A stretch of 41,145 bases of DNA from Gammaproteobacteria bacterium (GTDB lineage Bacteria > Pseudomonadota > Gammaproteobacteria > SZUA-152), in NCBI GenBank assembly GCA_013151355.1, contig JAADIL010000277.1:1-41145 (forward strand), written 5' to 3'. Numbering within the stretch: the stretch's first letter is position 1; every line of letters starts with the position of its first letter. Below are positions 1-9,589 of the stretch, piece by piece. The notes under the pieces were generated by a model. It was given only the letters and a program-made list of their open reading frames with translations. It did not search any database and was not told where the DNA came from. Made by a program: the position numbers and the translations under genes.

Positions 1-1
1 C

Positions 2-319
2 AGCTGTTTTGGCAAGGTCGGCAATATTGCTAAAGCCTTTGCGCAGAACAACCTGTAATAAAAAATCAGAATTGCATTCATATTCACGACATACTTTCGG
101 TCGTTTTTCCCAGTTGGTACAGCGGCCACTATCACGGTCAAAGTGGATGCAATAACCTTCAGGGTCTTTGTCGACAAAACCTTTTGCCGGGGTCGTGCCT
201 TTAGCTGGCTCCATTTCATCAGGTTGCAGGCGCACCAGCTTGCGGCAACAAAAAGTAGCACAGCCCATACGGCGTCCTTCATCACAATCTACAAATTGTG
301 TTTTTATACAGTTATCCAT
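2..319 (-). CDS. YkgJ-family Cys-cluster (putative zinc/iron-chelating) protein; C-terminus runs off the window edge
   Basis: Absent from the ORF track because it is open at the window edge. ATG at 319-317 is preceded by GGAGGT. My translation is MDNCIKTQFVDCDEGRRMGCATFCCRKLVRLQPDEM...GYCIHFDRDSGRCTNWEKRPKVCREYEC. It shows spaced Cys clusters and the C..W.E.RP..CR.Y.C-type tail typical of that family. Confidence 0.6.
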   Translation of the reverse strand, partial: MDNCIKTQFVDCDEGRRMGCATFCCRKLVRLQPDEMEPAKGTTPAKGFVDKDPEGYCIHFDRDSGRCTNWEKRPKVCREYECNSDFLLQVVLRKGFSNIADLAKTA

Positions 320-506: not shown

Positions 507-911
507 TTAAATAGCGGCTTCGATGGAAGGCATGGATGAACGCGACTTGGTCAGAACCATGCCAAGGTTGGCAGATTTGCGACAAACAAAAGTTGCTACA
601 TGTTCTTCATTGCTTTTGGAGCGCAAAAATACGTGTAACAAATTATCACTGTTAATAATGATTTCCTGAAAATAATGGTGGTTATCATCTTCCACGCCAC
701 GGGCCTTTTTAAACATGCTCTCAATCAGAGACACATTGGTTCCCTGAAAAAGGTCTGCGGTTGCAGCGGCAACAACCTCCAGCACTTCAGCCGGGTGTGA
801 ATCCACAGTCTTGGCACTCAGTAGCATACCTGTGCTGAGGTCTACGAAACCTGCGGCGACACATTCCGGAATGGATGCGATGGCTGTTTGTAGGGCTTTA
901 TCTAATGACAT
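507..911 (-). CDS. Roadblock/LC7 (MglB / CvnB-like) domain protein
   Basis: 134 aa. The pattern ...IPECVAAGFVDLSTGMLL...AAATADLF...EIIINSDNLLHVFLRS...FVCRKSANLGMV matches the Roadblock/LC7 alpha-beta-alpha layout. It is the last gene of an operon with a small GTPase. Confidence 0.75.
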   Translation of the reverse strand: MSLDKALQTAIASIPECVAAGFVDLSTGMLLSAKTVDSHPAEVLEVVAAATADLFQGTNVSLIESMFKKARGVEDDNHHYFQEIIINSDNLLHVFLRSKSNEEHVATFVCRKSANLGMVLTKSRSSMPSIEAAI

Positions 912-944: not shown

Positions 945-2306
945 TTATGACGACGCAATATGCCGTCCGTTGCTCATGCCGGAATTTGCTACCGCCAACG
1001 CAAATTCCTCCAGAAATTTCACCTGAACATCTGATTGCACCCAGCGTGGCTCAATGCTGCGCGCGGTTTCCAGAGCATCCAGGGCGGTTTCACCTTCCCA
1101 GATTAATTGCGCAACCAGCATGGTACCGGTGCGCCCCATACCTGCCTTGCAATGCATGGCAATGGCCTCACCCTGTTCAGTCAATCCCCCCATCTGTTCG
1201 CAAAACTGCAAGGCAGCTTCAATGGTGGGCACGCCCATATCCTTGATTGGAAATGCAATTCCCCTGATGTTGTATTCAGTCAGTATGGTCGGATCAATTG
1301 GCCGGGTTGTCAGGGAAACCAGTACGCTGATACCTACTCGCTGTAACGCAGCGAGGTCGTAATCCAGTTCGATTAATAATCCGGGACGTGGCGTACCGGC
1401 CAGATCACCTTTTCTGAGCCAAAGAAAATTGCGTGGCCCAAAGGCATCACTTTTGTATTTCCGGGCCTCTTCGGGTACTTTGGGGCGAACCGTTTCAAGC
1501 GGTGTATCCGGCGTATTGACGACTTCTGTTACCGGATCATTCAGATGTTCATCGGGTGTGTCCGGTGAAGAAACACAACAGGAACCACTGCGAACAAAGT
1601 CTCTGGCAGCTTGTGATTGTGGTGCAGCAAAAAAATCGGCAGTGGGTCGTGCTTCATGAATCCAGCCACCGGCCAATAATGCTGTTTGCCCACCGAGCCT
1701 GATTGCCTGCTTCTGGTTGTGCACAACCACCACCACAGCACGGCGTTCAGCCTCCATAAGCAGATAATCCAGCAGGCGATGTGTTTCTTCCTCACTCAGC
1801 CCGGCGGTGGGTTCGTCCACAAAAATTAATCTGGGGTTGGCTGCTACGGTGCGGGCAATTGCCAGATGGCGCTGCACCGCCAGTGGAAAATCCACGGCAT
1901 TATCGTTCAGCCGGTCGACCAGTTCAGTCAGGCCTGCCTTGCCCAACAGGCGTCGTGCCACATCTCGTTGCTGGGAGATATCCAGTGTATGGCGTTCGGG
2001 CATATCATTAACAATATTTTCACGAATACTGGCCATGATGAGTCTGGTTTTCTGCGCAACAAGTGCAGGCGATTCAGACTCTCTCAAAGGCATGCCGACA
2101 TATTCGACATTGCCCCAGGTGCGCAAGGAAGGGTTGGCATTGTTAAGACCGGAAAGCGTCCGCAACAAGGTCGATTTTCCGGTGCCAGCAGGGCCCAGCA
2201 ACACGGTCATTCCTCGCTCGGGAATGTCCAGGTCGATACCGTTAAGAATAATTTTGTCACCAAAAGCGACACCGTACTCTCGCAGGCACAGAAGCGATTC
2301 GCTCAC
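945..2306 (-). CDS. Fusion protein: N-terminal PstB-like ABC-type ATPase (no permease partner) and C-terminal Cys-based dual-specificity/tyrosine protein phosphatase
   Basis: 453 aa with a GTG start. Walker A is GPAGTGKST, Walker B is LIFVDEPTAGL, H-loop is VVVVHN. The tail QKQAIRLGGQTALLAGGWIHE...FF..P.S..ARDFV parallels PstB. The LSGGQ signature position reads FPLAVQ. A Pro/Thr-rich linker follows, then the PTP loop HCKAGMGRTG (HCx5R[ST]). Confidence 0.85.
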   Translation of the reverse strand: MSESLLCLREYGVAFGDKIILNGIDLDIPERGMTVLLGPAGTGKSTLLRTLSGLNNANPSLRTWGNVEYVGMPLRESESPALVAQKTRLIMASIRENIVNDMPERHTLDISQQRDVARRLLGKAGLTELVDRLNDNAVDFPLAVQRHLAIARTVAANPRLIFVDEPTAGLSEEETHRLLDYLLMEAERRAVVVVVHNQKQAIRLGGQTALLAGGWIHEARPTADFFAAPQSQAARDFVRSGSCCVSSPDTPDEHLNDPVTEVVNTPDTPLETVRPKVPEEARKYKSDAFGPRNFLWLRKGDLAGTPRPGLLIELDYDLAALQRVGISVLVSLTTRPIDPTILTEYNIRGIAFPIKDMGVPTIEAALQFCEQMGGLTEQGEAIAMHCKAGMGRTGTMLVAQLIWEGETALDALETARSIEPRWVQSDVQVKFLEEFALAVANSGMSNGRHIASS

Positions 2307-2851
2307 GCAGCTTCTCCGCTCAGCCCCGGGTCCAGAGAATAAAGCAACGCCTGAACCAGCATCATGACATCATCATGCTGACGGGCATCTACCTCAAACA
2401 CCGGAACATTCATATCCAGCTTGGTCAGGGTTGCCTGATAATCTTCCAGTTTTAATCCCTTGCGTAACTCCATTCTCGTAATGCCGATAGCCACCGCATT
2501 ATTTTGAATAAACTCTTTGAACGAATCGACAAAGGCCTGCAAATCTTCCAGCGGAGCCGGGTTGGCATCATCCAGCATAATAATGACGCCAAGACTGCCG
2601 TCGGTCAGTAAATCCCACATAAAGTTGAAACGTTCCTGTCCTGGTGTGCCATAAAGGTGGAGTGTTTCCCCGTTATCCAGGCGCATGCTGCCGTAATCCA
2701 TTGCTACGGTGGTTAACTCTTTTTTATCTTTTGTTTCATCTGTTGCGGCCTGTTCCGTGGAGAATGGAGCAACATCACTGATGGCGGTAATGGCGGTTGT
2801 TTTACCTGCACCCACTGGTCCGGTAAAAATAATTTTGTGCTGACCGATCAT
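2303..2851 (-). CDS. Small P-loop GTPase of the MglA / CvnD (COG2229) type
   Basis: 182 aa. G1 is GPVGAGKTT. Switch II is LHLYGTPGQERFNFMWD followed by GVIIMLD, as I recall for conservon/MglA-like GTPases. Its stop overlaps the next gene's start (GTGA). Confidence 0.85.
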   Translation of the reverse strand: MIGQHKIIFTGPVGAGKTTAITAISDVAPFSTEQAATDETKDKKELTTVAMDYGSMRLDNGETLHLYGTPGQERFNFMWDLLTDGSLGVIIMLDDANPAPLEDLQAFVDSFKEFIQNNAVAIGITRMELRKGLKLEDYQATLTKLDMNVPVFEVDARQHDDVMMLVQALLYSLDPGLSGEAA

Positions 2852-2889: not shown

Positions 2890-4071
2890 TTATTTGCTGA
2901 TGTGGCGCAAAATGGAAGCCAGCAACCCGCGTGTCGGAGACCCGTTTGCCCCTTTGGGTGCGATCAGAGAATCTACCCGGCGTATTGCGGGACCTGTTAG
3001 ACCTGTCGCGACTGTCGCACTGTAAAATGAATACACATCGGCCTGATCAATACCCAGACTCTGAGCGATATCATCCAGTGTGCGCGGGTTTCCCGCCCAT
3101 AAAGAAGCAATACGCATGCCATGCGGTGTATGTGGAAGGCGAGGAAAATTTGGCCAGGATTGCAAATAAAATGACATGGATAAATCGGTACCTTCCGGCA
3201 CACGGCCACGGGCCGTACGCAGGGTCAGATCCCATATCAGGTGATTGATGGATATGGATCTCAGGCCATCAGTTTCACTCGTGGATAAGCCTTTTTTACC
3301 TGTGTTGCGAACACGTTTGATTTCTATTGTAAATTCGTCACTCAGTGTTGCCACTCCCAGGTTCTTCAACTGACTGTCTGTCAAGTCGGTATAGACACGA
3401 TCCTGGTCGGGAAGCAGAATAAGTTGGCGGTTTCTCCAGCACTGCACATGGATGATGCACTGTTGCCCGGCGCCCTTTTTAAGGCCAGAGAGAATGCGCC
3501 CCAGGAGATAATCATCCGGGTTGTAATAAAGCTCAGGTTCTTCCCGCATACTGGTCTGTTGTACTGATTTCAGGCTGATGCTCGTGGTCTTGAATCGGGT
3601 ATTCAGTGCGTGGGCAGCTGCATTAACTCCTGATGTATTTAAATCCATTTTTGTTGATGCTCCCGGGTTGTTGTTGGAGGTCGAGGGTTTGGAGGTCAAG
3701 GGTTCTGTGGAGTCAATTTTCCCGGTGGTCTCGGCCACTGGTGGTAGCCCTGTTACCAGGTCGAAAATGGATTCCCACAATAAATCCAGTTTGGCGGGTT
3801 TGGCGACATAAATAGCCCCTTCAAGTTTTACTGAATTCTCTGACATGACAATGGCAGGCAGATCAGGGTGTTGTCGTTGATATTTTTCCCAGGCATTGGC
3901 TTCGCCATCCAGATCAACAATGCCCAGATGTGCGTCCTCATTCTGCGCAAATTTGCAGCGTCCCTTGAAGATAATTTTAAAAATGGTGTCCATCCTGGAA
4001 ATAGATCGCTCATCCATGCTGGCTAAAATAACTTTTATAGGTGAGTGTACTTCTGTTTTCACGGACTTCAT
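2890..4071 (-). CDS. Response-regulator receiver domain protein with an uncharacterised ~270-aa C-terminal region (possible terminal wHTH)
   Basis: 393 aa. The N-terminus has REC landmarks: ILASMDE (acidic pair), LGIVDLDG (acceptor Asp), AIVMSEN (Ser/Thr position), YVAKPAKL (Lys-Pro). A Ser/Thr/Asn-rich linker follows. The C-terminal ...NPRTLDDIAQSLGIDQADVYSFYSATVATGL looks HTH-like. Confidence 0.7.
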   Translation of the reverse strand: MKSVKTEVHSPIKVILASMDERSISRMDTIFKIIFKGRCKFAQNEDAHLGIVDLDGEANAWEKYQRQHPDLPAIVMSENSVKLEGAIYVAKPAKLDLLWESIFDLVTGLPPVAETTGKIDSTEPLTSKPSTSNNNPGASTKMDLNTSGVNAAAHALNTRFKTTSISLKSVQQTSMREEPELYYNPDDYLLGRILSGLKKGAGQQCIIHVQCWRNRQLILLPDQDRVYTDLTDSQLKNLGVATLSDEFTIEIKRVRNTGKKGLSTSETDGLRSISINHLIWDLTLRTARGRVPEGTDLSMSFYLQSWPNFPRLPHTPHGMRIASLWAGNPRTLDDIAQSLGIDQADVYSFYSATVATGLTGPAIRRVDSLIAPKGANGSPTRGLLASILRHISK

Positions 4072-4484: not shown

Positions 4485-4615
4485 CCTGAGAGTAACTGGA
4501 AGGTGCAATTGCCCGGGAGGTGAGCAAATAACGATTTGTCCGGGTTCCCCCTGCCCGGAACAAGAATTAAAGGGGAGACAAGATAAAGCCTTTTCAACAG
4601 GCTGAAAGTATTCAG

Positions 4616-5542
4616 TCAGTCGGCATTGAGTGCGGCGCGCAATGTTGCCTGGCTCAGGTGTGGTGCAAACAGCTCAACAAACTCAAAAATAAACCGGCGC
4701 AGGTAGCTGCCGCGACGGATGCCCACCCAGGTGGTGCTGGCCGGAAACAGGTGGATGATGTCGATACGACGCAGCCCGCTGTCACGCTGTGCTTCGAAAG
4801 CCACATCGGCCAGCAGCCCGATGCCCAGACCCAGTTCCACGTAGGTTTTGATGACGTCGGCGTCCAGCGCAGTGAGTACAATGTTTGGTTGTAGTCCGGC
4901 GGATTGAAAGGCGTCGTTGAGCTGGCTGCGTCCGGCGAAGGCAAAATCATAGGTGACGATGGGATGTTCAGCCAGGTCTTGCAAAGTCAACGGTGCCGTT
5001 TTTTCCAGCAGGGGGTGATCTGGTGGCACCACCACACAGTGATGCCAGGGGTAACAGGGCAGAGTAATGAGCCCGTCGGCGGAGGACACGGCTTCGGTAG
5101 CGATAACGATATCGGCCTCTCCGCGCAGGGTTCGGTCACAAATCTGCGTCGGGTTTCCCTGCCGTAATTGCAGGGTAACCTCGGGAAAACGTTGGCGGAA
5201 TTGTTGAATCACCGGCGGCAACACGTAACGCGCCTGGGTGTGGGTGGTGGCCAGGGTCAGGGTGCCACGTGATTGATCGCTGTAGTCTGCGCCGATACGG
5301 CTGATATTTTCTGTTTCGCGCAGTATACGTCTCGCGGCACGGATGATTTCGTTGCCAGGTTCGGTAATGGCGGTAAGGCGTTTGCCCTCGCGGGCGAAAA
5401 CAGGCACACCGAGTTCTGATTCGAGCAGACGTATCTGCTTGCTTACGCCGGGCTGCGAAGTGTACATGGCCGCTGCTGCTTCGGTGATATTGAGATGGTG
5501 ATCTACGACTTCGCAGATGCAGCGCAATTGGTGCAATTTCAT
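4616..5542 (-). CDS. cysB: LysR-family transcriptional regulator CysB (sulfur assimilation)
   Basis: 308 aa. MKLHQLRCICEVVDHHLNITEAAAAMYTSQPGVSKQIRLLESELG...ATTHTQARYVLPPVI...GNPTQI is near-collinear with E. coli CysB as I remember it. It is divergent from a sulfite reductase operon. Confidence 0.9.
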   Translation of the reverse strand: MKLHQLRCICEVVDHHLNITEAAAAMYTSQPGVSKQIRLLESELGVPVFAREGKRLTAITEPGNEIIRAARRILRETENISRIGADYSDQSRGTLTLATTHTQARYVLPPVIQQFRQRFPEVTLQLRQGNPTQICDRTLRGEADIVIATEAVSSADGLITLPCYPWHHCVVVPPDHPLLEKTAPLTLQDLAEHPIVTYDFAFAGRSQLNDAFQSAGLQPNIVLTALDADVIKTYVELGLGIGLLADVAFEAQRDSGLRRIDIIHLFPASTTWVGIRRGSYLRRFIFEFVELFAPHLSQATLRAALNAD

Positions 5543-5673
5543 GGAGGTTTCCGTTGTTTCTTCGAGTTGGCTTCGCCAGCAGGTACCGCAGTGATTTTGT
5601 TGCTGGCGGTGTGGGTGGTCGTGCCCGAATTTTGTTTGTAATCGTCTGATTAGCCGCTATTTATAACCTAAAT

Positions 5674-5687
5674 GTCTTTATAAAGAC
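5674..5687. promoter_or_regulatory. Perfect 14-bp palindrome in the cysB/tauE-cysI divergent promoter region (candidate LysR/CysB site)
   Basis: GTCTTTATAAAGAC lies in an AT-rich stretch about 70 bp upstream of the tauE-like start and about 130 bp upstream of cysB. Confidence 0.3.
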
Positions 5688-5756
5688 ACTTTTATTCTTT
5701 TTCAACCTATTGATGGATTGTTATTGTCTGCGCACATTCGAAAGGAATGCGCGTTC

Positions 5757-6533
5757 ATGGATGCTTTTCTCATTATTTCAGGCTTTGGCGTAGGCGTTCT
5801 GGTCGGACTTACCGGAGTGGGAGGCGGTGCGTTGATGACGCCGCTGCTGATTTTTGGCTTTGGTATCGCGCCTGCCGTGGCGGTGGGTACGGATCTGATG
5901 TTTGCTGCTATTACCAAGGCCAATGGCGTCTGGGTACATGCTCGCCAGAGTTCGGTGGAATGGTGTGTTGTGCGATGGCTGTTACTGGGCAGTTTGCCTG
6001 CATCCCTGCTGACGTTGCTGCTATTGGGGCAGGTAGATACACACACCGACGCGACGCAGGACCTGATGACCACCACTTTGGGTCTGGCACTGATTGCCAG
6101 CGCTGGCGCGTTGATATTTCGACGCCGTCTGGCGCAAAGCGATACCGGTTTGGTGCATGACGAGACGGGACGCAAAACCCAAATCGCCACAGTGTTAACC
6201 GGTGTAGTGCTTGGAGCGTTGGTGACACTGACCTCGGTGGGTGCTGGCGCGCTGGGAGCAGCGGTATTGTTTTGGCTCTATCCGCGCATGAAGGCAGTGC
6301 GGGTGGTGGGCACCGATCTCGCGCATGCAGTGCCGCTGGCGACGGTTGCCGGTCTTGGTCACTGGCAGCTGGGTACGGTGGACTGGGTGTTGCTGGGTAG
6401 CCTGCTGATTGGTTCGTTGCCGGGCATATACATTGGCAGCCGACTCAGCGCCCATGTGCCGGAAGTCTGGTTGCGTTTGGTGTTGGCCAGTTTGTTATCG
6501 GTGATTGGTGTGCGGTTGGTGTTGTTCGCTTGA
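5757..6533 (+). CDS. TauE/SafE (DUF81) family anion permease, sulfite/sulfate-related by context
   Basis: Polytopic membrane protein. The start MDAFLIISGFGVGVLVGLTGVGGGALMTPLL has the typical family N-terminus, and a second G-rich repeat is in the C-terminal half. The ATG at 5757 is preferred over the ORF-track start at 5718. It lies directly upstream of sulfite reductase. Confidence 0.85.
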   Translation: MDAFLIISGFGVGVLVGLTGVGGGALMTPLLIFGFGIAPAVAVGTDLMFAAITKANGVWVHARQSSVEWCVVRWLLLGSLPASLLTLLLLGQVDTHTDATQDLMTTTLGLALIASAGALIFRRRLAQSDTGLVHDETGRKTQIATVLTGVVLGALVTLTSVGAGALGAAVLFWLYPRMKAVRVVGTDLAHAVPLATVAGLGHWQLGTVDWVLLGSLLIGSLPGIYIGSRLSAHVPEVWLRLVLASLLSVIGVRLVLFA

Positions 6534-6583
6534 GTGTCGCGGGTGCGGGCGCAGGAATCAGGACTTACATTGGAGAAAGAAAA

Positions 6584-8692
6584 ATGACGACGACAAAAAA
6601 CGAGCACTGGATAGAGACTGCGGAGCTGACGCAATACCGTCAGGCGGTGCAGGATGTTTTGGCGGGTGAGCTTGACGAAACCCGTTTTCAGGCCCTGCGT
6701 TTGCAACAGGGTGTCTATGGCCAGCGCCAGGAAGGCGTCAATATGGTGCGTATTAAATTGCCAGGCGGCGTAGTGTCACCGGGTCAGCTGGGTGCCGTCG
6801 CCGATGTGCTGGACAACTATTCCGAGCTGGATATTGCCAGTGTCACCACGCGACAGGATCTCCAGTTGCACAGTATTTCACTGAGTGACACTCCCGCTGC
6901 GCTGGAAAAACTGGCCGAACAAGGCCTGACTTCACGGGAAGCCTGTGGCAACACCGTGCGTAATATCACTGCCTGCCCGCTGGCGGGTGTCTGCCCCTGT
7001 GAGCACAGCGATGTGCAGCCTGTGGTGGATGCAGTGGCACAACGTTTTTTGCGACACCCGTTGACCCAGCATTTACCCCGCAAATTCAAAATGAGTTTTT
7101 CCGGTTGCGAAGCGGATTGCGCGCAGGGGTTGTTTCATGATCTGGCTGTTATCGCCGTAAAGCGTGATGGTGTATTTGGTTACAAAGTGTTGGCAGCAGG
7201 CGGTCTTGGTCACAAGCCTCGTCCGGCCATTACGCTGGAAGAATTTGTTGAAGAGTCAGATTTGTTGCCGGTCATTGAAGCGGTACTGGCCTTGCACCAT
7301 CGTTATTCGGATCGTAAGCGTCGTGCCCGGGCACGCATGAAGTTTTTGCTGGAACGGTTGGGCGAGGCCGAATTTGTGCAGAAGTATCAAGTGGAATTAC
7401 AACGCACCCGGCAGGTGTATGCCAGCGATGCCTTGCCTGAGGCAAACTGGGTCGCGGCGGATGAGACCGTGAAGTCCAAAATCTCTGCTACAGGTGCACC
7501 GCGTGGTGCATTGCAACAACGACAGGCAGAACTGTATGTATACCCGGTGAGCTTGCCCCTGGGGGATTTGAGTTCAGCACAAATGCACGGTCTGGTGGCA
7601 TTGTCCGAACAATATGAAGCTGTGGAAATGCGTGTCACCCAGGATCAAAATCTGATGCTGTTGAATATTCCGCAAGACGGACTACAGGCTGTAAAAGACG
7701 GTATACGTTTGCTGGATCTGGCTGCGCCCGCTGCCGGTGATGATGTGGTGGCCTGTCCCGGTACCTGGACATGCCGTCTGGGTATTACCGCCTCGCGGTT
7801 GGTGTGCCAGGAGTTGAGTGGTGGTGAAAGTGATCTGCGTATTCGGGTCAGTGGCTGTCACAACGGTTGTGCGCAACCTTACGTGGGTGATATCGGTATG
7901 CATGGCGAAGGTCGTCGCATCAATGGAAAGTTGATTCCGCATTACCGCCTGCATTTTGGTGGCGATGGCCGTAACGGTGGCAAGATTGCCGTGCGTGGTC
8001 CTGAAGTTCCTGTACGCATGGCACCTGCGGCGGTAAAACGTGTTAATCGTGAATATGAACGTACACGTCAGGCTGAAGAAAGTTTTCATGTCTGGGCACA
8101 ACGCCAGGAAGAAGGCTATTTCACCCAGCTGTTACAGGATCTAACGGTGATTAGTGGCCCGAATAGTGAGTGGTTGTCAAAAGATTTTGGTGAAACAGAA
8201 GACTTCCGCGTGTTGGCATTGGGTGGTGGCGAATGCATGGGTGCAAAACATGATGTGGTGTCGGCAAGTTTCTCCGAGGCAGCACATGAGCGGGAATATC
8301 GTCAGGTGTTTCAACTGGCGAAAAAAGAAGATCAGGCGCTGGACTGCGCCGAAGCTATTGCACGCCTGGTAGCACAGGCGTTATTGCATGCCGGAGGCGA
8401 AAATGTTTTGCCGGATGATCTGACCGAGCTTGCCGGGAAAATCGCGAAACAGACAGACGCAGCGCAGCATCTTGCAGAATCACTCACGGTCTTTATTGAG
8501 GAAATGCAGAAATTGCGTGCAGATTTTGATGATGCCCGTTTTGAAAAACTGGCAAATGCGCAAGACTTGTGGACCGTGTTAGTGGCAAAAGCCTGTGAAT
8601 CAGTAGATGTGCAACTGGATGTGCAAGCGTCATTACCGGAAGTTGCGCAGCTGGTGGCCGTGGGCGAAAAGAAATTGCAGGTGTCTGCCTAG
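6584..8692 (+). CDS. cysI: Assimilatory ferredoxin-type (NirA/CysI-like) sulfite reductase hemoprotein with a ~180-aa C-terminal extension
   Basis: ATG at 6584 follows GGAGAAAG. The siroheme/[4Fe-4S] Cys motifs are ACPGTWTCRLG (C-x5-C) and SGCHNGCAQ (C-x3-C). Two nitrite/sulfite-reductase repeats are present. It is flanked by cysB and cysH. Confidence 0.85.
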   Translation: MTTTKNEHWIETAELTQYRQAVQDVLAGELDETRFQALRLQQGVYGQRQEGVNMVRIKLPGGVVSPGQLGAVADVLDNYSELDIASVTTRQDLQLHSISLSDTPAALEKLAEQGLTSREACGNTVRNITACPLAGVCPCEHSDVQPVVDAVAQRFLRHPLTQHLPRKFKMSFSGCEADCAQGLFHDLAVIAVKRDGVFGYKVLAAGGLGHKPRPAITLEEFVEESDLLPVIEAVLALHHRYSDRKRRARARMKFLLERLGEAEFVQKYQVELQRTRQVYASDALPEANWVAADETVKSKISATGAPRGALQQRQAELYVYPVSLPLGDLSSAQMHGLVALSEQYEAVEMRVTQDQNLMLLNIPQDGLQAVKDGIRLLDLAAPAAGDDVVACPGTWTCRLGITASRLVCQELSGGESDLRIRVSGCHNGCAQPYVGDIGMHGEGRRINGKLIPHYRLHFGGDGRNGGKIAVRGPEVPVRMAPAAVKRVNREYERTRQAEESFHVWAQRQEEGYFTQLLQDLTVISGPNSEWLSKDFGETEDFRVLALGGGECMGAKHDVVSASFSEAAHEREYRQVFQLAKKEDQALDCAEAIARLVAQALLHAGGENVLPDDLTELAGKIAKQTDAAQHLAESLTVFIEEMQKLRADFDDARFEKLANAQDLWTVLVAKACESVDVQLDVQASLPEVAQLVAVGEKKLQVSA

Positions 8693-8856
8693 GAGGAGCC
8701 TGTCGGACTCAGGATGAATCTACTGCGGAAAATTCATTTTGAATCCATTTTTTTGATCCTTTTTGTTGAATATGTCCAATATTCGCCTCAAACGATCAAA
8801 ATAATGGACTCAAAATAACTTTCCCTCACTACGATTCTCTAAGTCCGACAGCCTCC
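8693..8856. mobile_element. MITE-like element, family A, copy 1
   Basis: It starts at the base after the cysI stop. The terminal inverted repeats are GGAGCCTGTCGGACTCAG and (reverse complement) GGAGGCTGTCGGACTTAG. The interior is also hairpin-forming. It is homologous over its whole length to 23221-23389. Confidence 0.7.
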
Positions 8857-8902
8857 TGGTACATCGTTTACACAGGTAATATTTGATATAAGGAGAAAGG
8901 AA

Positions 8903-9589
8903 ATGTTGGTGGATAAAAAGGTAAAATCAGTTATCTCTTTGTTGAATAATATTCAACGAGACTACGCACCGGCCGCGCTGGCCAGCAGCTTCAGTATTGA
9001 AGACATGCTGTTGCTGGACATCATCAGCAAACACGCGCCGGAAATAAATGTGTTCACCCTGGACACCGGGCGCTTGCCAGCGGAAACTTATGACCTGATG
9101 CAAAAAACCCACGAGCGGTATGGCTCTGTGGTGGAAGTTTATGCACCAGATTGCTCCGTGCTTGCGGAATATGTGCAGGTGCAAGGCCCCAATGCTTTTT
9201 ACGATAGTGTCGAACAACGCAAGCAATGCTGCTCTATACGAAAACTGGCACCATTGAAACGGGCCTTGTCTACACGCGAAGCCTGGATCACCGGGTTACG
9301 CAAAGAGCAATCGGTAACCCGTACTGACCTGCAACGTATGGAGTGGGATGAAGCGCATGGTATTCCCAAGTTCAATCCCCTGCTGGATTGGAGTGAAGAG
9401 GAGGCCTGGGCCTATATCCGTGAACATGACGTGCCCTTTAATGAATTACATACCAAGGGGTATCCGAGCATCGGTTGCGCTCCGTGTACACGGGCAATTG
9501 CCGAAAAAGAGGATGTTCGTGCCGGACGCTGGTGGTGGGAAAACCCGGAAAGCAAGGAGTGTGGTTTGCACGTACGGGCAAACACATAA
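8903..9589 (+). CDS. cysH: Thioredoxin-dependent APS/PAPS reductase, Fe-S (APS-reductase) type
   Basis: 228 aa with RBS AAGGAGAAAGG. It has a PAPS-reductase fold N-terminus, the Cys pair QCCSIRK, the motif GCAPCT and the C-terminal ECGLH. These are the cluster cysteines of the bacterial APS-reductase subclass. Confidence 0.9.
   Translation: MLVDKKVKSVISLLNNIQRDYAPAALASSFSIEDMLLLDIISKHAPEINVFTLDTGRLPAETYDLMQKTHERYGSVVEVYAPDCSVLAEYVQVQGPNAFYDSVEQRKQCCSIRKLAPLKRALSTREAWITGLRKEQSVTRTDLQRMEWDEAHGIPKFNPLLDWSEEEAWAYIREHDVPFNELHTKGYPSIGCAPCTRAIAEKEDVRAGRWWWENPESKECGLHVRANT

Follow-up and report, generated by a model that had tools for sequence, protein, structure and literature searches.

The 41,145-nucleotide contig JAADIL010000277.1 of a gammaproteobacterium (lineage SZUA-152, assembly GCA_013151355.1), hereafter termed the window, encodes a two-domain protein in which an ATP-binding cassette (ABC) ATPase domain related to PstB, the ATPase component of the phosphate importer PstSCAB, is followed by a cysteine-dependent phosphatase domain belonging to the superfamily of protein tyrosine phosphatases (PTPs). 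The gene for this protein, here termed ABC-PTP, lies in an operon with genes for an MglA-like small GTPase and a Roadblock protein, and this context, of which the first-pass annotation of the DNA named only the GTPase and that in passing, is the main clue to its function. Judged from sequence, it is moderately probable that ABC-PTP is a nucleotide-regulated protein phosphatase serving as an effector or regulator of the GTPase switch, that is, a cytoplasmic signaling enzyme and not a transporter subunit. The system as a whole is best described as a Group 3 type of MglA/Roadblock system to which an ABC-ATPase-phosphatase has been added; singly, each domain of the latter is of a known kind.

The two domains of ABC-PTP are separated by a linker which opens with a conserved GSCxVPxP motif and continues as a variable stretch rich in Pro, Thr and Asp (residues ~246-284), the latter having been recognized already in a first-pass annotation of the DNA. 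All the motif strings quoted in that annotation are present in the translation, including GPAGTGKST at residues 38-46, FPLAVQ at 140-145 and HCKAGMGRTG at 385-394. In the AlphaFold2 (AF2) model of ABC-PTP, built with 60 homologues and with a mean predicted local distance difference test score (pLDDT) of 84.9, the linker falls below a pLDDT of 50 at residues 257-271, and its mean pairwise identity is 0.39 as against 0.53-0.59 for the two domains; as modeled, it is a flexible connection between them. Conservation was assessed in a family alignment of 197 sequences, comprising homologues from 90%-identity clusters and 50%-cluster representatives of 410-500 residues. In this alignment C243 of the linker motif (window positions 1578-1580, reverse strand), which immediately follows the C-terminal tail resembling that of PstB, is kept in 183 of the 197 members. 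Transmembrane segments are absent from all four operon proteins, ABC-PTP included, and the protein is predicted to be soluble, as had been claimed, and cytoplasmic.

The fusion is a genuine single-gene product. Its start codon overlaps the stop codon of the upstream GTPase gene by four nucleotides (GTGA), and homologues keep the N-terminus MSES(L/I)L. At least 120 full-length two-domain homologues with 54-91% identity were recovered (120 of 120 among the matches listed), and further full-length homologues extend down to 47-54% identity across many genera; the window protein is 90-91% identical to those of metagenome-assembled genomes (MAGs) of Chromatiales and other Gammaproteobacteria. When the phosphatase half was used as a query against 1.84 billion representatives, 171 clusters (at 50% identity) were found at E<=1e-30, and an N-terminal ABC-like domain is present in 133 of the best 150 representatives. 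The other 17 are short, being stand-alone dual-specificity phosphatases (DSPs) or fragments, and these are the sole observation in favor of the view that two genes were joined by an assembly error or a frameshift. We give that view practically no credence: uninterrupted open reading frames (ORFs) of 434-469 codons in independent isolates and MAGs rule it out, among them those of the complete Sulfurifustis variabilis genome and of Exilibacterium, Marinobacter, Microbulbifer, Halospina and Thiohalophilus, and the GSCxVPxP motif at the linker start is itself conserved.

The first-pass annotation had called the fusion unusual. This holds in that the searchable literature yielded no description of an ABC-phosphatase fusion, nor of any MglA operon that includes a phosphatase. 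It does not hold in the sense of rarity, given the 171 clusters above and the occurrence of relatives in 470 of 185,579 species genomes (one genome per species). The best 80 loci are nearly all from Gamma- or Betaproteobacteria, with Marinobacter, Microbulbifer, Halospina, Thiohalophilus, Thiobacillus, Methylotenera, Kangiella, Sulfurifustis and Exilibacterium among the genera represented. Databases already hold members of the family, though under generic labels: "ATP-binding cassette domain-containing protein" or "atypical dual specificity phosphatase".

The ATPase domain and its signature motif

The N-terminal domain is readily recognized by the Pfam model ABC_tran at residues 21-168 (E=1.3e-15; 58.6 bits against a cutoff of 25). 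Its top NCBIfam model is that of PstB (TIGR00972, 8.7e-40), which is ahead of the next non-PstB family (~1e-21) by about 18 orders of magnitude. PstB is also the closest relative in both sequence and fold: residues 1-240 share 28% identity with it, and in a Foldseek run on the full-length model, in which the ABC half dominated the matches, this half superposed on E. coli PstB (PDB: 9k3s/9k3x) with template modeling (TM) scores of 0.86-0.88, normalized to PstB. The PstB-like N-terminal ATPase of the first-pass annotation is thus well founded. The TIGR00972 score of 136.6 bits, in contrast, lies far under the curated cutoff of 343.2, and the domain is therefore best classified on sequence grounds as PstB-derived, yet not PstB.

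ABC-PTP shares with PstB the A-loop, Walker A, Q-loop, Walker B with its catalytic Glu, the H-loop, and the C-terminal tail motif F..P....DY/F...G. The A-loop residue F15 is kept in at least 90% of a 60-sequence alignment; the Walker B string FVDEPTAGL occupies residues 162-170 and the H-loop string VVHN residues 194-197, and the conservation of the remaining residues in the 197-member family is given in Table 1. HMMER leaves a gap of 7 residues at the Q-loop, but counting back from the S-I-x-(D/E)-N-I motif places Q85 on the Q-loop Gln of PstB; since it keeps the PstB spacing to this motif, the Q-loop can be regarded as intact. The exception to this conservation is the signature (C-loop), where the HMMER alignment places LSGGQQQRLCIAR opposite FPLAVQRHLAIAR of E. 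coli PstB (PDB: 9k3x). Here the LSGGQ of PstB is replaced by FPLAV, as the first-pass annotation had perceived, and the replacement extends to all 197 members of the family. Their consensus, L-[PS]-L-[GA]-x-Q-R-H, is non-canonical throughout and yet itself conserved; the first Gly of LSGGQ has become Leu in 132 of 197 members, and the six residues seen most often at this position do not include Gly.

These sequence features indicate that the domain keeps, on its own P-loop side, the full set of residues for binding and hydrolyzing ATP: Phe of the A-loop, Lys of Walker A, Gln of the Q-loop, Asp-Glu of Walker B and His of the H-loop. Because the catalytic residues are near-invariant and the signature is altered in 197 sequences, the P-loop side appears to be under strong selection, with the face that would close over the partner's ATP remodeled family-wide. 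An ATP-sandwich homodimer of the canonical type with normal turnover is unlikely, given that every copy carries the altered signature. PhnK and PhnL of the C-P lyase system, which are among the Foldseek matches, and SufC, soluble ABC ATPases which dock on enzyme complexes, are likewise transporter-type nucleotide-binding domains (NBDs) without a membrane partner; these, however, have a canonical LSGGQ and form ATP-sandwich dimers, and none of them is fused to a phosphatase.

The family-wide loss of the signature also bears on how the ATP site might be used. One proposal is that the ABC domain is a non-cycling scaffold, either a pseudo-ATPase or a constitutive ATP binder, which docks the phosphatase on a GTPase-Roadblock complex, with regulation by GTP/GDP alone and no ATP gating. 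Degenerate ABC sites of heterodimeric transporters, which hold ATP without turning it over, offer a parallel. We regard this proposal as doubtful, since K44, Q85, E165 and H196 are all under strong purifying selection (Table 1), which is unexpected in a pure scaffold. The near-invariance of the ATP-site residues renders plausible an ATP-gated phosphatase, as had been suggested in the first-pass annotation.

A second proposal sees in ABC-PTP a working ABC-transporter ATPase, that is, a PstB paralogue which energizes a permease encoded elsewhere and to which the phosphatase has been attached for regulation, for instance of phosphate uptake or signaling. The clear affinity to PstB in sequence and structure, the retained C-terminal tail motif and the conserved ATP-site residues speak for it. 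Yet the score falls well short of the PstB cutoff, LSGGQ has been replaced throughout the family, and the gene is translationally coupled to that of a GTPase. Furthermore, no permease or binding-protein gene occurs within the first ~12 kb of the window or among the conserved operon genes of 82 related loci (described below), which agrees with what had been noted of the immediate neighborhood. Given the degenerate signature, the absence of a linked permease in the 82 loci and the signaling operon, a role as a transporter ATPase is very unlikely, and the earlier statement that the protein is not a transporter appears well supported. The companion suggestion of phosphate sensing is not supported: pst or pho genes are found neither in the two annotated loci nor among the five conserved genes of the 82 loci, and nothing ties the protein to phosphate beyond its having PstB as the closest ABC relative. 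In comparison with PstB, ABC-PTP lacks pstSCA and phoU neighbors, is fused to a phosphatase, and resides in a GTPase operon.

The phosphatase domain and its candidate substrates

The C-terminal half was assigned from sequence searches. On residues 291-434 Pfam reports three DSP-PTPase families along with DSPc and Y_phosphatase, with PF22785 (1e-16, 61.8 bits) and PF22784 (1e-11, 45.6 bits against a cutoff of 27) both above their cutoffs. The domain aligns end-to-end, over 145 residues, with a bacterial protein of known structure named "dual specificity protein phosphatase family protein" (PDB: 25xa_A; 1.4e-19), and it also matches human DUSP23/VHZ (PDB: 2img; 2e-11) and archaeal PTPs. Its AF2 secondary structure follows a beta-alpha pattern with pLDDT 80-94. 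The general-acid Asp D356 is placed ~30 residues upstream of the catalytic Cys, as the PTP/DSP superfamily requires. The Pfam Y_phosphatase match spans residues 356-434; this match and those to receptor PTPs arise because the C-terminal QSxxQxxF motif resembles the Q-loop of classical PTPs. With the P-loop, the acid Asp and QSxxQxxF all in place, the phosphatase half is predicted to be catalytically complete. The PTP/DSP fold proposed in the first-pass annotation is therefore supported by whole-domain matches and by the full set of catalytic residues, and not merely by an HCx5R string.

The nearest characterized forms, DUSP23/VHZ (PDB: 2img/4erc), SsoPTP, Tk-PTP and 25xa, share with this domain the same minimal DSP fold of ~150 residues, the HCxAGxGRTG P-loop and an I-P-D-type Asp. 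The phosphatase of ABC-PTP, unlike these, forms the C-terminal part of a protein with two domains. Where DUSP23 has Glu134, described as its primary acid (review PMC13577060), ABC-PTP has the invariant Gln within QSxxQxxF.

A group of long relatives further informs on the probable substrate. Five proteins of 1100-1900 residues (P0149, P0155, P0156, P0190 and P0201) combine large N-terminal regions with inserts of 300 residues between the ABC and PTP domains. One of these, P0149 (1456 residues), has an N-terminal Pkinase domain of the Ser/Thr/Tyr type ahead of the ABC and PTP domains, and this joining of the module to a protein kinase domain points to protein phosphorylation. Pfam found no match (at E<=1e-4) in the N-terminal regions of the other four, of which P0155 is from the myxobacterium Haliangium, and phmmer and hidden Markov model (HMM) searches found no GTPase, receiver (REC)-like or Roadblock domains within the long relatives (750-1900 residues). 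A precedent for coupling of an MglA-type GTPase to tyrosine-type phosphorylation is furnished by Myxococcus xanthus, in which the kinase MasK binds MglA and reacts with anti-phosphotyrosine antibody (PMC3546991). That system differs in involving a kinase, encoded in a separate operon, without an ABC domain and with a Group 1 MglA. The WPD-like and Q-loop-like motifs, taken together with the kinase-fused relatives and the MasK-MglA precedent, suggest that the substrate is probably a phosphoprotein, with phosphotyrosine as the likeliest target.

An alternative is that the substrate is a phosphoester other than a protein, for example a lipid of the phosphoinositide kind, a polyphosphate (of inositol or inorganic), an alarmone nucleotide or the 5' end of an RNA, in which case the operon would control a metabolite or second messenger and not protein phosphorylation. 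The P-loop HCKAG[ML]GRTG is one residue removed from the HCKAGKGRTG of PTEN, and PTEN and voltage-sensor phosphatases are among the sequence matches (3e-8 to 5e-6). Non-protein substrates are common among atypical DSPs, and the lack of a kinase in the operon would also be in keeping with this alternative. We nevertheless consider it fairly unlikely, as protein phosphatases (25xa, DUSP23, archaeal PTPs) give the best matches, PTPs directed at phosphotyrosine typically have such WPD-like and QSxxQxxF motifs, and in P0149 the module is fused to a protein kinase.

Certain database names hint at yet another setting, namely a component of an anti-phage or inter-bacterial conflict system. PF22785 and PF22784, the best Pfam models for the phosphatase, take their names from polymorphic toxins and from the "Swiss Army Knife" proteins of conflict systems, and UniRef terms the long Haliangium relative a "phosphatase domain-containing putative toxin". 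However, PADLOC returned only generic ABC P-loop matches for the fusion and none for the GTPase, the 393-residue protein or the Roadblock protein of the operon. There is no linked immunity, secretion or nuclease gene, and the genes form a compact signaling module with correlated divergence across loci. Hence, such a role is extremely improbable.

The GTPase operon and related systems

To place the gene in context, the ORFs of 82 related loci were searched with the window proteins, and two loci, from Sulfurifustis and Exilibacterium, had called, Pfam-annotated genes. The gene order is REC/winged helix-turn-helix (wHTH)-like protein, MglA-like GTPase, ABC-PTP and divergent Roadblock, followed in most by a canonical Roadblock. 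In the two annotated loci this appears as a sensor-like gene, an ATP_bind_1 GTPase, ABC-PTP, a protein of ~135 residues without a Pfam match, and Robl_LC7. The same order is seen almost everywhere in the 82 loci, with flanks that vary between genomes: the GTPase gene lies close to the fusion gene in 78 of 82, and directly upstream in nearly all, while the small Roadblock gene is directly downstream in nearly all. Pairwise divergence is correlated among the ABC-PTP, GTPase and 134-residue Roadblock genes (r 0.67-0.81).

The GTPase motifs are kept in 75 orthologues, with GTPGQ at G3, viGvtrmD without NKxD at G4, and EVDAR at G5. Pfam gives no match for the 393-residue upstream protein, in which an MD..R / DLD / KP pattern is REC-like and wHTH matches at the C-terminus are faint. 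The conserved ~210-residue C-terminal domain of this protein occurs elsewhere as a stand-alone form or fused to GAF-HWE_HK. In Sulfurifustis variabilis (L001, positions 4850-7447) it is fused to a GAF-HWE histidine-kinase-like protein of 796 residues with no receiver-like domain. As Sulfurifustis has this fusion where others have a receiver-like domain, the input modules before the GTPase gene appear to be interchangeable.

The 134-residue protein encoded downstream gave no sequence match to Pfam or PDB profiles, but the top Foldseek matches of its model are all Roadblock, MglB or Ragulator proteins (TM 0.65-0.78), and comparison with canonical Robl by hhalign gave 89.8%; its modeled structure is thus a Roadblock fold. 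Of the partners of ABC-PTP it is the best conserved, and more so than ABC-PTP itself (mean pairwise identity 0.69 versus 0.53), and 3487 clusters (at 90% identity) match it at E<=0.001. The canonical Robl_LC7 is present in 63 of 74 related complete operons. The window and its closest relatives (L003-L008) are without it and retain the divergent Roadblock gene alone, the canonical gene having been lost in the window's clade. In three Marinobacter loci (L046, L072, L076) two tandem sets of ABC-PTP and small Roadblock genes, in part with Robl, are found within 6 kb, and at several other loci (L011, L050, L055, L056) the small Roadblock gene is present in two copies.

This operon can be compared with the Group 3 MglA operons of beta- and gammaproteobacteria, in which a domain of unknown function (DUF) protein, receiver-like at its N-terminus and wHTH-like at its C-terminus, precedes MglA and one or two MglB genes, and in which MglA is marked by a DAR G5 motif and a G4 without the NKxD lysine (PMC4316618, Wuichet & Sogaard-Andersen 2014). 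Compared by motifs and gene order, the two agree in taxa, in gene order, in a GTPase with DAR at G5 and without NKxD, and in one or two Roadblocks downstream. The 393-residue protein, by its REC-like pattern and faint wHTH matches, would fit the published description of the Group 3 DUF. What is extra here is the ABC-PTP gene between the GTPase and Roadblock genes: an ABC or phosphatase gene is present in 0 of the 44 Group 3 neighborhoods of Table S2 of that study, and the word "phosphatase" is absent from the paper (PMC4316618).

A further comparison is with the actinobacterial conservons and G-protein systems (CvnA-D; MfpB-D), in which a sensor, a Roadblock/MglB protein, an MglA-family GTPase (ATP_bind_1) and an accessory regulator are encoded together (PMC13343842, PMC13621833). 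These are comparable operons. However, DUF742/CvnC and the CvnA-type kinase are conservon features not present here, the GAF-HWE kinase is joined to the upstream domain in Sulfurifustis only, and ABC-PTP is not known in conservons.

A relative on the Ralstonia solanacearum megaplasmid CP015851, with 37.7% identity over the phosphatase half, is annotated as an "ABC transporter-like protein". It belongs to a compact trio (locus 4583-6923) of a 197-residue hypothetical protein, this 436-residue protein and a 135-residue hypothetical protein, which suggests that the GTPase, ABC-PTP and Roadblock core is also found in this genetically tractable plant pathogen.

Next after the small Roadblock gene, both in the window and in the relatives with contigs of sufficient length (L003, L004 and L006), is a gene of the CxxCxxCC family, a homologue of which is found within 6 kb at 22 of the 82 loci. 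This gene, the conserved C243 and the redox sensitivity of the catalytic Cys may, taken together, point to a redox input. On the other side, a sulfur-assimilation cluster adjoins the operon (window positions 4616-9589). Promoter and terminator scans gave sites no more numerous than in shuffled sequence.

Table 1. Positions of ABC-PTP, its domains and motifs, and neighboring genes in the window; residue numbers are those of ABC-PTP, and fractions give conservation among the 197 family members.
Feature	Position	Strand	Remarks
ABC-PTP fusion gene	945..2306	-	single long ORF, GTG start, 453 residues
PstB-like ABC nucleotide-binding domain	1587..2306	-	residues 1-240; Pfam, NCBIfam, Foldseek
Walker A GPAGTGKST	2169..2195	-	K44 194/197
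Q-loop Gln Q85	2052..2054	-	193/197
Degenerate signature (C-loop) FPLAVQRH replacing LSGGQQQR	1866..1889	-	residues 140-147; HMMER alignment to PstB
Walker B and catalytic Glu LIFVDE	1812..1829	-	residues 160-165; D164 196/197, E165 195/197
H-loop His H196	1719..1721	-	192/197
Inter-domain linker	1446..1586	-	residues 241-287
DUSP23/VHZ-like Cys-dependent phosphatase domain	972..1445	-	residues 288-445; Pfam, PDB sequence matches, pLDDT
General-acid Asp D356 in WPD-like loop PIxDMG[AV]P	1239..1241	-	195/197; aligns with the IPDF Asp of DUSP23
PTP P-loop HCKAGMGRT	1128..1154	-	residues 385-393; C386 195/197, R392 197/197
Q-loop-like motif QSDVQVKF (QSxxQxxF)	1014..1037	-	residues 424-431; Q424 194/197, Q428 197/197, F431 194/197
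MglA-like small GTPase	2303..2851	-	182 residues; Pfam ATP_bind_1 and Ras; GPVGAGKTT, TTVAMDYG, YGTPGQERF, EVDAR
REC/wHTH-like protein	2890..4071	-	393 residues; receiver-like N-terminus, variable linker, conserved C-terminal domain
Divergent Roadblock/MglB-like protein	507..911	-	134 residues; AF2 pLDDT 81, Foldseek
Partial CxxCxxCC gene	1..319	-	PF03692, putative Zn/Fe-chelating; Pfam 8.2e-08
LysR-type regulator	4616-5542	-	sulfur-assimilation cluster
TauE sulfite exporter	5718-6533	+	sulfur-assimilation cluster
NIR_SIR sulfite/nitrite reductase	6530-8692	+	720 residues, long C-terminal extension; sulfur-assimilation cluster
PAPS reductase	8903-9589	+	sulfur-assimilation cluster

Proposed role and its implications

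Given the above context, we propose that ABC-PTP would act as an effector or feedback regulator of a Group 3 MglA GTPase switch. The Roadblock proteins would serve as a GTPase-activating protein or a platform for the GTPase, and the phosphatase would be controlled, in its activity, its oligomeric state or its location, by the state of the GTPase jointly with the binding of ATP by the altered ABC domain, and would in turn dephosphorylate a protein substrate. The ABC domain itself might function as a slow ATP switch or clamp, or might bind a different partner through its remodeled face.

Several points weigh against this proposal. The interaction with the GTPase or Roadblock proteins is drawn from gene order only, and the correlated divergence of the genes would also be produced by shared species phylogeny. 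The near-invariant catalytic Glu and H-loop His argue that hydrolysis matters, which is a poor fit with a homodimer lacking the signature. The operon encodes no kinase, and among Cys phosphatases with such a fold lipids, nucleotides or RNA ends can also serve as substrates. Finally, the AF2 model of ABC-PTP reaches a predicted TM score (pTM) of only 0.65.

A more specific version of the effector proposal, which we put forward as speculative and improbable as it stands, is that the altered ABC domain no longer pairs with itself. Instead, its conserved L-P-L-G-x-QRH surface and intact P-loop side would engage the MglA-like GTPase or the Roadblock dimer, thereby forming a gate in which the states of ATP and GTP are read jointly and which switches a tyrosine phosphatase on or off. 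If true, this would constitute a path by which a bacterial G protein reaches a protein phosphatase and in which a transporter NBD has been reused as a coupling device, and the two-nucleotide gate could be the missing output of those Group 3 MglA systems that carry ABC-PTP.

Ras-like GTPases and Roadblock proteins are widespread in bacteria, and their outputs are known for very few systems, namely Myxococcus polarity and the actinobacterial conservons. For the beta- and gammaproteobacterial Group 3 systems no defined output was found in the searchable literature. In a large subgroup of some 470 species, among which Marinobacter, Microbulbifer, Halospina and Ralstonia solanacearum can be cultured, ABC-PTP supplies a candidate output enzyme, namely a complete Cys phosphatase on an ATP-binding module, which offers a testable handle on the Group 3 pathway. 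The architecture and its conserved oddity would surprise specialists, though the functional reading is one that we infer. Among bacterial DUSPs, a 2025 review counts TpbA alone as identified (PMC13577060), and ABC-PTP would add a large cytoplasmic family to these enzymes. It would likewise be a naturally occurring case of a transporter NBD reused in signaling, with a signature motif that is non-canonical and yet conserved.

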